A stretch of 64,000 nucleotides of DNA from Octopus vulgaris. Taxonomy: Eukaryota. The stretch covers positions 28,954,001 through 29,018,000 of the forward strand of contig OX597832.1 of the NCBI GenBank assembly GCA_951406725.2, read 5' to 3'. Positions 3,544 through 31,859 of this stretch are shown here, in pieces (positions within the stretch are counted from its first letter, which is position 1; each line of letters opens with the position of its first letter). The notes beneath the pieces are model-generated. The model did no database searches, was not told the DNA's origin, and saw only the letters and a program-made list of their open reading frames with translations. The position numbers were made by a program, and so were the translations under genes.

Positions 3544-4904
3544 AAGGCTAGTTATTATTTGAGTAAGCCACTGATGATCACGGTGAGGTGAAATACCTGA
3601 CGCCTACCCTTTCCACCCCACCACCACCACGCCATTACCTGTTACGTTATTTACACCTGGTGACAATCTACTCACACCTCTCCCTCTCTCTCTTCCTCTC
3701 CCTCTCTCTCTCTTCCTCTCACTCTCTCTCTATTTATCTACCTATCTTTCTATCTATTTGTCCCCTATTTACCTGTTCTCCCTTTGCCCGTCCATAGGTT
3801 TGTACGTCTGTCTATTTTCTTGGATTTTATCTCTCTCTCTTTGTCCTTCTCTCTCTTTCTCCCTCTCTCTCTTTCTCTCTCCCTCCCTCCCTCCCTCCCT
3901 CTCCCCCTCTCACTCTTTCTCCTTCTCCCTCTCCCCCTCTCTCTCTTTCTCTCTTGTCTGACAATCTCTGCATGTCTTTCGATAACTCCCGTTTACCATT
4001 CTTGTGTCTGTGACCGTAAGCACTAAGTTACGGATGACGATGATGATGATGATGACTATGATATCGATGATGATGATGATGGCGATGACGATGGTGATGA
4101 TGATGATGACGATGACGATGGTGATGATGATGATGATGATGACGATGGTGATGATGACGACGACATTGCAATTCCGTCGTCCGATGTTCAAATTATCAAA
4201 AACCAGTGGAACACAAAATTAATTAACACGGTTTCTAATTGTGCAAAAGTCTTCCCTCTTCTTTTCCTAACAAAATAACAGCAACAGCAACGACAACACG
4301 AATAATGACGAAGCTTCTACGTGGTCATCTCAGCAGGTTAGAAATAACAGCTAGTGCCCATCTTATCGTCTGCAAGATGAAGTCACGTATTAAGAAATAC
4401 CGTCGGACATAACAGCGTGTTTTACATAAAGGCGGGATGGTCACGATGGGACATTTTTGATTATATGTCTGTTCAATTATTACTGGCCCGGTCTTAATCA
4501 ACAATCTAGAATGATTCCAATGAAGACGTCTCTACGTGGTCGCTAGAAACAAGAGCCAAACTCCTCCCTAATCATCCCTCGACATCTTAAAAGGTGGTGG
4601 GAGACTGTGACCGATTTAGTCCCAAATATGCAACAAAAGGGATGATTATTGTCGATTATATTTGATCATAATTCTACCACACCTCAGCTGACCGAGGGCT
4701 AAACACAAGCAACAAAAGCAACAATTCTATTACTCAGAATAATATCTAAAAGTAATGTTTAACGCTACATCAAAAAGGTTGTTCGACGTTACTACTGTTC
4801 AACCCCAGACAGAGCCTCAACCATTCAGTTATCGGTGCAGTCAGCATCCGGTATATATTGCAAGCAGGGGAGGGAACTCCCACCATCTTCTAGCAGACGA
4901 CAGG

Positions 4905-4955
4905 ATCGCCAGACCGAACGGTTTCGAGATATTTGAGCCCCTCTTCAGTGGTGAT
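4905..4955 (-). ncRNA. Type I hammerhead ribozyme, intact core
   Basis: Minus strand reads atcacca-CTGAAGA-gggg ctcaaata tctc-GAAA-ccgttcgg-TC-tggcgat. Stem I 6/7 bp, stem II 4 bp (two G·U), short stem III, GUC cleavage triplet. Confidence 0.85.
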
Positions 4956-5100
4956 AGCAGGAATTCGCTCCCGCTCTCAATATACAGAAAACCAAGCGAC
5001 CATCAGTCACTGATCTTGCAAGAAGTAAAGTAGCTAATTAGAAAAAATCTCAATAAGAGACTTAATTAACTTAATTATTTTTCAGGTCTTTTGTTCGAAG

Positions 5101-18678: not shown

Positions 18679-18763
<85 letters not shown>

Positions 18764-19012
18764 GATAGTGGTTGTGAGTGCAACCCATCATGGGATAACA
18801 TATATCCAATATACTGCTAGTAAAGCACCCAACAAAGTTATACTCACTTATACATACTGTACTTATTGTATCATATTACTCATTGATGTACACTGTTTTG
18901 TTCTATATTATTATGTTTGACCTTAATGTTCATATGTAGTGGTTTAATAAATTATGTGATTGGGTATTATCAGGTGGTTGATTATTGATTAAGATGTATT
19001 TCTCCATTTTCT

Positions 19013-19079
<67 letters not shown>

Positions 19080-19286
19080 GTGAAATAGAAAGATGAATAA
19101 TCTTGTAGTAGATTAATCAAAAGTTTAACCGATACCTTAGTAGCAAAAATCACAGCAGTAAAACAGCACGGTTGGAGGTACAACCATATGGTGTTGCAAC
19201 CGTGCGTTGGTGCGGATAATTGAAATTAGAACATTATTGGTGAATTGAAGAAATGGAGCTGAACGCAGATTGAACAGAAATCGTTT

Positions 19287-19380
19287 TATTTCATTCTACA
19301 CGTGTTTCGAAAGGCACAAATTACCAAAATCCGATGGAATAATGGGACCATATTGTGTCTTTCTCTTCAGGAAGAAAATA
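19287..19380 (-). ncRNA. Type I hammerhead ribozyme (mirror copy in left arm)
   Basis: Exact reverse complement of 19437-19530. Confidence 0.8.
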
Positions 19381-19436
19381 GTTCGATTTGTTTTTGCTCC
19401 GCCTCTGTTCTGTTTTTGTTTTTCCAACGGATTTCC

Positions 19437-19530
19437 TATTTTCTTCCTGAAGAGAAAGACACAATATGGTCCCATTATTCCATCGGATTTTGGTAATTTG
19501 TGCCTTTCGAAACACGTGTAGAATGAAATA
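19437..19530 (+). ncRNA. Type I hammerhead ribozyme with palindromic stem III
   Basis: tattttcttc-CTGAAGA-gaaagacacaa...ttgtgcctttc-GAAA-cacgtg-TA-gaatgaaata. Stem II 10/11 bp, stem I 9/10 bp (one G·U), GUA triplet with cleavage predicted after 19520. Confidence 0.82.
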
Positions 19531-19577
19531 AAACGATTTCTGTTCAATCTGCGTTCAGCTCCATTTCTTCAATTCAC

Positions 19578-19670
<93 letters not shown>

Positions 19671-19750: not shown

Positions 19751-19842
19751 CGCCCACTGGGGTACTTGAAACCACGACTCTCAGATCACTAAGCTTAAGT
19801 CTACCATAAAATCTGATGCTCAACCGACTGAGCTATGTGGGC
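19751..19842 (-). tRNA. Intron-containing tRNA-Lys(UUU)-like gene, probably a pseudogene (intron about 19787-19806)
   Basis: GCCCACATAGCTCAGTCGGTTGAGCATCAGATTTTA[20 nt]ATCTGAGAGTCGTGGTTTCAAGTACCCCAGTGGGCG. Acceptor stem 6/7, anticodon loop 1 nt short, T-stem altered, TTTT downstream. Confidence 0.7.
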
Positions 19843-30079: not shown

Positions 30080-30215
30080 CTCCTTTTACGATCCCTTTTG
30101 ATCGAAACTCCCCCTTCCTTTTTTTTTTTTTTTCTTTCTTAAACCTTCAAAAGAAAAGCTCTACCTTGTAATTTGTTCTATCTGTGTGCAGCCCTGTGTG
30201 GCTAATAAAGAAACA
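30080..30215 (+). mobile_element. Extremely 5'-truncated copy (3' tail only) of the Tx1-like LINE
   Basis: Identical to 32096-32234 except T-run length; flanked by the 13-bp direct repeat tatctatccagcc (30068-30080 / 30216-30228). Confidence 0.9.
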
Positions 30216-30233
30216 TATCTATCCAGCCATCCG

Positions 30234-30323
<90 letters not shown>

Positions 30324-30332
30324 CATCCATCC

Positions 30333-30370
<38 letters not shown>

Positions 30371-30377
30371 TTGTCTG

Positions 30378-30463
<86 letters not shown>

Positions 30464-30472
30464 CAGCCATCC

Positions 30473-30532
<60 letters not shown>

Positions 30533-31859
30533 GAAAAACTGAAAAACTACGAAGCGGTGACAGGAGCGAAAATCAACCGGGAAAAGTCAGTGGGCTTGCG
30601 ACTAGGCACCTGGAGAAGCAAGCCCATGCCGTCCACCAGCGCCTCCGTCGTGGGACGCTGGACCGACGGCCCGGTTGAGTTGCTCGGGGTCTGGTTTGGT
30701 CCGGACCTCCAAGTGGAGAAGAACTGGAACGAGATAACGAGTAGGGTGGTCACTCTCGCCCGGCAATGGGCCGTGAGGAAACTGTCCCTAAAAGGTCGAG
30801 CGGAGGTGGCGAACACGTACATCGCGTTCGTCATCTACTACCGCCTGACCGTCGTACCTTGTCCCGACCCTACCATCACCAAACTACAACGCATCCTCTT
30901 TCGCTTCTTGTGGAAAGGATGCGTCCCGATGGTCAGGCGATCCATTTGCTGTCAACACCCGTTAAAAGGAGGGCTGGGCATGCCGTGGTTGATGATGCGC
31001 AGACACGCGCTGAGACTGCGGCATCTCTGGCTCTATGTAGACGACGGTGAACAGGTGTGGTCGCCGTTTGTGAGGCACGCTTTCCCGCAGCTCGTCTCCA
31101 TGACCGAACTGCAGTCGTGGATCAAAAAGAGGCCGAGGAAGGGCGAATGGCACCGCGAGTGTCGCGTTGCTCTCAAGCAACTCTGCCGTCCTGGGTCGAC
31201 CTTAAGTGACTTCAACACAACCAAAGCATTCTATAGGGGTTTAGTGGAGGGGAGGTACGACGACGAGCTCGGGGCGAACCTGGACGTCGACGAGGAGTAC
31301 CTGACCCGCCTGTTCAGGACGACTTTCGGGCCAGGGCCCATGGACAACTTCCAGAGATCCCTGGCCTGGCAGTGCTACCGAGAAGCGCTACCCGTTCGGG
31401 ATAAGCTCTACAGACACGGCTCGAGAAACACGGGGCCGACCTGCCCGAGATGCGGTCAGAGCGACGAAACCGTTCTGCACGCACTCGTTCAGTGTCCAAC
31501 AATTTCCGACCTGTGGGCTTATGTCGAACAACTGCTGTCACGTGTGGGACGAGTCGGTTTATCAGCTGAGTCTATCGTCAATATTGTCACGCCTCCTTCC
31601 TTCAAACGGGAAGGAAGAGCTATTTTCATCATCCTTGTGGCTATGGCGAAAGAATGTATCTGGTGGACGCGTCTGAAAGGATTGGAGACAAACACTTTCC
31701 TCTCTGGTCAATCTCTCATCAACTTCTTCAAGTACCACTTGAAAAGGAAAGTGAGAGTAGAGGCAAGTTTTGTCTAGCGAATGTTTTAAAAAAAGATGGG
31801 TGAATGTAGCAAGAATGGCACGTATGAATGACGAAGCCACCTTGAGCATAGTCCTATGA
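30533..31859 (+). pseudogene. ORF2 fragment: end of reverse transcriptase domain plus zf-RVT CCHC finger
   Basis: GAKINREKS, LLGVWF, LSLKGR, FRFLWKG, GGLGMP and CPRCGQSDETVLHALVQC. Open to 31777; a probable 2-bp deletion near 31760 shifts the natural end (RQVLSSECFKKRW...SIVL*, stop at 31859). Confidence 0.9.

Follow-up and report, generated by a model that had tools for sequence, protein, structure and literature searches.

A hammerhead palindrome in the Octopus vulgaris genome is a two-armed insertion of a Penelope-like element

A 149-bp perfect palindrome with a hammerhead motif in each arm lies in a 64,000-nucleotide stretch of Octopus vulgaris DNA (the window; contig OX597832.1, positions 28,954,001 to 29,018,000). 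It is a real insertion of a known kind, the inverted pseudo-LTR (pLTR) with a one-sided tail found among Penelope-like elements (PLEs), and one of hundreds of head-to-head inserts in this genome that pair a long end with a short end. We regard it as a 5'-truncated, two-armed insertion of a young Hydra-type element, here called family A, that probably arose when two target ends primed cDNA synthesis at two fixed positions of its RNA (dual target priming).

In the open-access literature we found no paper describing a PLE tail of 150-170 nt, a strict pairing of long and short ends, or TA targeting without linker cysteines. All three are seen here, the tail being four to five times longer than published ones and the strict pairing occurring in two families. 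The palindrome locus itself is ordinary transposon debris, and family A is a useful natural experiment. The origin of the inverted ends and tails of PLEs has been named as an open question (PMC8557442), and an element that is young, has intact ORFs and leaves many TA-adjoining ends is informative on how such ends form. Because its two start sites lie far apart, one can tell which target end used which site.

Layout of the palindrome locus and its hammerhead motifs

Positions in the parent's terminal repeat are given as pLTR numbers, in which +1 is the first base of the palindrome arm. The features of the locus and of its left-hand neighbour are listed below in window coordinates.

18758 to 19022: two-armed insert of a second family (family B); long-end piece on the - strand (18758-18840) and short-end arm on the + strand (18838-19022)
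19016 to 19075, no strand: (TA)30 target tract at the long end, pure TA
19076 to 19381, - strand: long arm, parent pLTR +1 to +306, ending at the family's long 3' end; 100% identity to the intact copy L032
19076 to 19232, - strand: 157-bp one-sided tail, +150 to +306, between the two fixed 3' ends; a predicted hairpin lies inside
19287 to 19380, - strand: left copy of the minimal type I hammerhead, a motif called from the descriptor scan and the constrained fold; its core starts at 19370 and the cut is predicted after 19297
19378 to 19381, no strand: 4-bp microhomology at the head-to-head junction of the arms
19382 to 19435, + strand: 54-bp spacer, parent -54 to -1, by which the short arm extends 5' beyond the long arm
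19436 to 19584, + strand: short arm, pLTR +1 to +149, ending at the family's short 3' end; 100% identity to the parent
19437 to 19530, + strand: right copy of the minimal type I hammerhead, a motif called from the descriptor scan and the constrained fold; its core starts at 19447 and the cut is predicted after 19520
19585 to 19664, no strand: (TA)40 target tract at the short end, pure TA

The exact reverse-complement arms, 19233-19381 and 19436-19584, are 149 nt each, 100% complementary and 54 nt apart. The spacer is not foreign DNA but the parent sequence directly upstream of the ribozyme, so the right arm is really 203 bp long (19382-19584). The short arm as a whole thus corresponds to parent -54 to +149 and the long arm to +1 to +306, and both are identical, letter for letter and spacer included, to an intact copy. 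The insert must therefore be very young, and it is non-coding merely through truncation. These results bear out what the initial annotation had read from the letters of the window: the inverted repeat is exact, the left copy does run 157 bp past it to 19076 before pure TA begins, and the call of a very recent, ORF-less insertion of Penelope type agrees with the 100% identity of the arms to a parent PLE of which the insert is a 5'-truncated copy. The hairpin in the tail, in a centroid fold, has a z of -1.4, which is not significant.

Among the other contents of the window are a tRNA-like sequence on the - strand at 19751-19842 (Rfam RF00005, 40.8 bits), likely the head of a SINE, and a 522-aa frame with a zf-RVT match on the + strand at 30209-31777, likely a LINE fragment. 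Pfam gave no match in the 78 complex ORFs tested out of 557 in the window, and a single match, to the LINE-type zf-RVT, in 12 long ORFs; neither search found a host gene.

Each arm contains CUGAAGA, an extended stem II of 5 bp or more, GAAA, a palindromic stem III and a GUA triplet. Stem I is made of nine pairs and one mismatch, and stem II starts with five pairs that include G10.1-C11.1. Stem III has two pairs in the monomer, while between two copies it is an 8-bp self-complementary helix (-10.3 kcal/mol). The fold constrained to the ribozyme, at -14.4 kcal/mol, lies 1.5 kcal/mol above the minimum of -15.9 kcal/mol. A descriptor scan of both strands of the 64 kb returned three candidates for a type I hammerhead: the two palindrome arms and a third (about 4900-4958, - strand, core at 4948) that is unrelated to families A and B. 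Rfam gave no hammerhead among its 66 matches to the window at E<=1, so the hammerhead call rests on the descriptor scan and the constrained fold. On these grounds the type I hammerhead claimed for each arm is real at the level of the motif. The Rfam matches to miRNA families lie below the gathering score and reflect hairpins and microsatellites.

The core is intact in 125 of 127 family A arms at 95% identity or more (overlapping loci included). The initial annotation had expected core bases to be conserved among homologues, and they are kept both in an older subfamily and in the distant family B. Minimal hammerheads of this type did not cleave as monomers in published work (PMC4209133), and with a stem III of only 2 bp a single arm would need a partner to cut. 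The predicted cut, at +85/86, is not a 3' end of inserts. As a 5' end it is favoured mildly at best: joints no more than 1 nt away from the anchor, scored by eye with variants and recurrent joints kept in, number 34 of 93 at the cut (+86), 25 of 82 at one control position (+65) and 3 of 28 at another (+107). Neither arm of the palindrome locus starts there. The hammerhead likely serves the life cycle of the parent, in which its predicted role is to cut tandem transcripts as a dimer; in the insert it is a passenger. A mild hump of 5' ends, again scored by eye in 63 loci, lies just upstream of the core at -9 to +10 (approximately 11 of 119, against 9 in the preceding 50 nt), and the long arm of the palindrome locus falls within it.

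The parent element and the pairing of long and short ends

A genome search with the left copy gave 1,461 candidates, and approximately 30 of the 40 that were scored are identical at 100% over 306 bp. Three of the matches stand in tandem with a period of 3,624-3,625 bp, in an array with an open ORF of 895 aa whose ATG is at +353, that is 353 nt past the first base of the arm. The full ORF is present in four examined loci. Copies of the arm joined to a reverse transcriptase (RT) and GIY-YIG reading frame, which a Penelope origin had led the initial annotation to expect, thus exist as an intact PLE of 3.6 kb. The tandem array (L031-L033, G000:C1:119514140-119526688) holds approximately 3.5 near-identical full-length copies and is a candidate source locus; at its 5' end it adjoins pieces of another ORF-bearing repeat.

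The 895-aa protein, P0001, has a telomerase-like RT with a YRDD motif and, C-terminally, a GIY-YIG-type domain. Pfam and PDB sequence searches gave no match for it. The best Foldseek matches of its AlphaFold model (pLDDT 79) are telomerase RTs (E 1.4e-9), and 298 proteins match the sequence at E<=1e-30. The GIY-YIG-type domain is called at the level of motif and has no profile match: VYQC/YVG and conserved R, H, E and N residues align with relatives, and endonuclease activity is predicted from these. DKT is at residue 126 and RWL at residue 41, the latter a variant of RWK (RW[KR] is found in 17 of 32 long relatives). The conserved E and N are bracketed by CxxC and CxH motifs, here CNLCVSE at 859 and CPH at 887. 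The protein has only 9 cysteines, and there is no CCHH in the GIY-YIG core. The CxCx5C linker is missing from P0001 and from 41 of 42 linker readings (overlapping loci included), while 29 of 32 long relatives have it, as does family B, so that its absence looks like a secondary loss. It is because of this loss that we file family A as Hydra-type, on setting its sequence beside published Hydra sequences by eye, and not as a proven member of the clade. The linker region corresponds to residues 744-776 in L032, where the cysteines are lost. Two low-confidence insertions interrupt the otherwise open ORF product at residues of about 492-563 and 637-767, and the second, which is rich in Ser and Asn, is reminiscent of the N-rich inserts of rotifer Penelopes.

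To compare inserts across the family we used a 16-mer common to both arm types, which occurs 1,464 times in the genome (a control, 3 times). The sample consists of 60 loci from the first 100 position-ordered matches and three further loci, 63 in all, and represents one stretch of a single contig. It excludes the tandem array and the two singles that closed the list. L077 gave no alignment and does not enter the counts, and L081 and L104, with separated arms, are not counted as joints.

The 3' ends of the sampled arms form two clusters approximately 155 nt apart, at +146 to +156 and at +304 to +307 (alignments that reach +312 run into TA). There are 47 adjacent head-to-head joints, of which 40 are long plus short, none is long-long or short-short, and 7 have internal pieces. 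All 40 directly joined inserts are therefore long plus short, which would have a probability of about 2e-12 if the ends were free. The side taken by the long end is random (19 versus 21). In all 28 opposite-strand match pairs within 6 kb, judged by eye, the 3' ends face outward. Every sampled outer end adjoins TA (111 of 111), which, with (TA)30 and (TA)40 at the palindrome locus, confirms the (TA)n targeting first proposed from that locus. Genome-wide there are roughly 770 short ends at TA (385 on the forward strand). About 15 of the 63 loci have a single arm, and both long-only and short-only kinds occur. The pure TA runs that flank inserts have a median of 16-17 units, about twice the 8 of other nearby TA runs; a preference for long pure tracts or extension during insertion could each account for this. 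Three loci of an older subfamily (L104, L082 and L046; 79-85% identity) have the same two end positions, and L104 and L082 keep the hammerhead core.

The two arms of an insert resemble each other far more than arms of different inserts do, differing at 33 of 7,976 sites (0.41%) as against 1.43% between inserts. Recurrent variants are found on both arms in 74 of 84 cases, and 15 shared variants are private to one locus. Both arms would come from one source haplotype. In inserts with at least 40 shared bases the arms are perfect in 16 of 32, and the other half carry substitutions. The short arm reaches further 5' in 21 of the 40 directly joined inserts, the palindrome locus included, and the long arm in 13; the 5' ends coincide within 5 nt in 6, where 0.56 would be expected. 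Six of the 40 have no palindrome at all because the long arm stops before the short site and leaves the arms with nothing in common. In 28 of 40 the joint has an overlap of 1-20 nt, and the spacers of two-arm inserts range from 0 to about 3.6 kb. Two whole hammerheads are present in 23 of 40, and 10 of 40 also have a spacer of 100 nt or less. As these ten share its arrangement, the palindrome locus is a common outcome.

The 265-bp insert to the left of the (TA)30 tract belongs to family B, a second Hydra-type PLE family, and has no palindrome because its arms do not overlap. One family B 16-mer has 381 exact matches. The endonuclease region is 27% identical to that of P0001 (E 2e-17) and keeps the linker as CNCR..C, and the hammerhead has the same core with a loop II of approximately 100 nt and another palindromic stem III. 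TA-flanked ends lie at -168 (30) and at -2 (31), about 170 nt apart. All 23 inverted pairs are long plus short (46 loci), a count that is less clean than that of family A because the sample was partly picked by similarity to the neighbouring copy at 18758-19022. Families A and B have a similar spacing between their two ends. They differ in how far these ends lie from the ribozyme cut, at 64 and 221 nt for family A but about 215 and 385 nt for family B.

Proposed dual target priming and the alternatives

In the scheme that we favour the endonuclease of the element would nick a (TA)n tract on both strands, and reverse transcription would be primed by each of the free target ends, one at +306 and the other at about +150. 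A similar motif with ATAAT at its end is found at the long and at the short end. A TA primer could base-pair with the RNA there, so that priming could proceed through a few A/U pairs at these two sites. Both cDNAs would extend towards the 5' end of the RNA and stop at variable points; microhomology would join their ends and repair would fill in the second strands. Template covered by both cDNAs would become a palindrome, in the present case +1 to +149, which by chance holds the hammerhead. RT from +306 may displace, or stall behind, RT from +150, and by analogy with the anole model an RT dimer could take part in PLE integration. This scheme is deduced from end products, and target-site duplications are unreadable in inserts into (TA)n.

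At least sometimes, both arms probably derive from a single RNA molecule. Coincident 5' ends favour one RNA template over two RNAs of one source, while a later deletion of the centre or gene conversion within the palindrome could also explain both the coincident ends and the shared variants. The prediction that the short arm, as leader, should reach further than the following long arm gave 21 versus 13 (P 0.23, not significant), and the lengths of the two arms are weakly correlated (rho 0.23, P 0.16).

A single priming event followed by fold-back, in which a target-primed cDNA stops, snaps back and copies its own sequence into an inverted arm, has been proposed with an antisense template for rotifer Penelopes (PMC3846280). 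Such self-priming would fit the shared haplotypes, the six inserts with coincident ends and the 13 in which the long arm reaches further. However, a fold-back copy cannot outrun its template, and with the short arm further 5' in 21 inserts (by 54-58 nt at the palindrome locus) the process is excluded for these unless extra template jumps are allowed. Nor can it give the six inserts whose arms share no sequence, and it leaves the fixed short end unexplained. As a general account we consider it improbable: the fixed ends, the strict pairing of long with short and a short arm that outruns the long one argue for dual priming over self-priming. Two independent insertions placed head to head in one (TA)n tract are suggested by the single-arm inserts of both kinds and by the clustering of different PLE families in the same TA tracts. 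That reading is very unlikely, as there is no TA between the arms, the pairing is always long plus short and always outward, and the arms share a haplotype far above the rate between loci. An assembly fold-back deserves hardly any weight. Perfect palindromes are a known artefact of long reads, and none of the short-read contigs examined spans the palindrome locus, but an artefact would mirror the flanks and equalise the arms, whereas here the flanks differ and the arms are unequal. It would not place the ends on family-wide fixed positions or make the spacer parent sequence, half of the comparable inserts carry substitutions between their arms, and short-read contigs from three DNA or unclassified runs, though none covers this locus, contain varied inverted joints of family A.

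The initial annotation saw in the palindrome a self-silencing switch, in which a ribozyme locked in double-stranded RNA could be freed either through A-to-I editing or through a start site within the loop. Part of this stands. Transcripts of either strand would contain the antisense arm ahead of the ribozyme, and a read-through hairpin of about -300 kcal/mol, compared with about -14 kcal/mol for the ribozyme fold, would bury it; the geometry is enough for that, and selection is not needed. A function is a different matter. Antisense-first order is automatic in any head-to-head insert, the sampled inserts differ widely in the lengths of spacer and arms, 10 of the 40 have the same arrangement, and zero divergence from the parent leaves no time for selection on this insert. 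A released monomer would moreover have a stem III of 2 bp, and such motifs are reported as uncleaved as monomers (PMC4209133). The sequence is carried by 20 sequencing runs from 9 studies, none of them RNA on record, and the arms have no A-to-G differences in short-read contigs, a type of data that is uninformative on editing. The hairpin is a routine by-product of insertion, the palindrome is likely not a ribozyme switch, and we give a functional one very little credence. It is plausible that hairpin RNA feeds silencing as a putative by-product at the level of the family.

Comparison with known elements

Published PLE insertions include inverted pLTRs with a one-sided tail of 30-40 bp (PMC8557442; PMC3846280). 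The inserts described here are similar in having a head-to-head inverted, 5'-truncated copy with an extension at one end only, and family A shares with EN+ PLEs the tandem copies that form pLTRs, 5' truncation, inverted arms and a one-sided tail. They differ in the length of that tail, which is approximately 155 nt for family A and approximately 170 nt for family B, and in that the one-sidedness is strict in the samples of both (40/40 and 23/23) but optional in published PLEs. The shorter tail is a described trait of EN+ PLEs and not a defining one.

The Hydra clade of PLEs with a C-terminal endonuclease (Craig et al. 2021, PMC8557442) resembles family A in its single ORF with RT followed by a GIY-YIG-type domain, in DKT and in the CxxC/CxH around E and N, as well as in a canonical hammerhead near the 3' end, (TA)n targets, and tandem and inverted copies. 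Unlike Hydra elements, which are under 3 kb, family A is 3.6 kb long with two low-confidence insertions in its protein, has RWL for RWK and has lost CxCx5C although its TA targeting is complete. Family A is not the published Hydra-1_Obim, which, compared by eye, has a different length and hammerhead. It has been suggested that the CxCx5C linker guides TA targeting, and 111 of 111 ends in (TA)n despite its loss speak against this. Naiad/Chlamys PLEs, with an N-terminal endonuclease and no canonical hammerhead, do not match family A, where the endonuclease motif is C-terminal and a hammerhead is present. Non-LTR retrozymes, which are head-to-tail non-coding monomers (10.64898/2026.07.22.740005), do not fit either, as the copies here are head-to-head truncations of an autonomous element.

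Pairs of minimal hammerheads on opposite strands, 100-700 bp apart, were described in Schistosoma and ascribed to truncated PLEs (Cervera and de la Pena 2014, PMC4209133). The arrangement, the long stem II and the palindromic stem III are the same as here, and our data go beyond that report in tracing the parent and the rule that generates the pairs. Dual target priming also agrees with the two-site, two-strand behaviour in vitro of the anole Poseidon element PAc (Frangieh et al. 2024, PMC11167929). At AT-rich targets PAc cuts both strands and extends them, and it has two internal RT start sites that bound the tail, while the hammerhead cut is dispensable and not an end point. PAc belongs to a different clade, and its start sites are adjacent and within the ORF, whereas those of family A are non-coding and upstream of the ATG. 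The parts of that report on which we draw tie neither start site to one end of an inverted insert.

A more general proposal, which is possible but on balance doubtful, is that Hydra-type PLEs integrate by an obligatorily asymmetric twin priming at fixed sites. One RNP, likely with an RT dimer, would grip one RNA molecule at a pair of duplicated start signals separated by 155-170 nt, one for each target end, and the trailing RT would displace the leading cDNA. If true, asymmetric twin priming would explain the inverted ends and the tails of PLEs in one step, the linker zinc finger would be unneeded for (TA)n targeting, and hundreds of perfect hairpins would be scattered through the genome and feed silencing of the family by small RNAs.

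In LINE-1 twin priming, two target ends prime two cDNAs that are joined by microhomology, which gives an inversion; the position of the second site varies, and there is no overlap between the arms. Of the open-access papers that pair twin priming with Penelope, none, judged by title, is on the mechanism of PLEs. Family A differs from LINE-1 in that the second site is fixed and the arms usually overlap, which gives palindromes.
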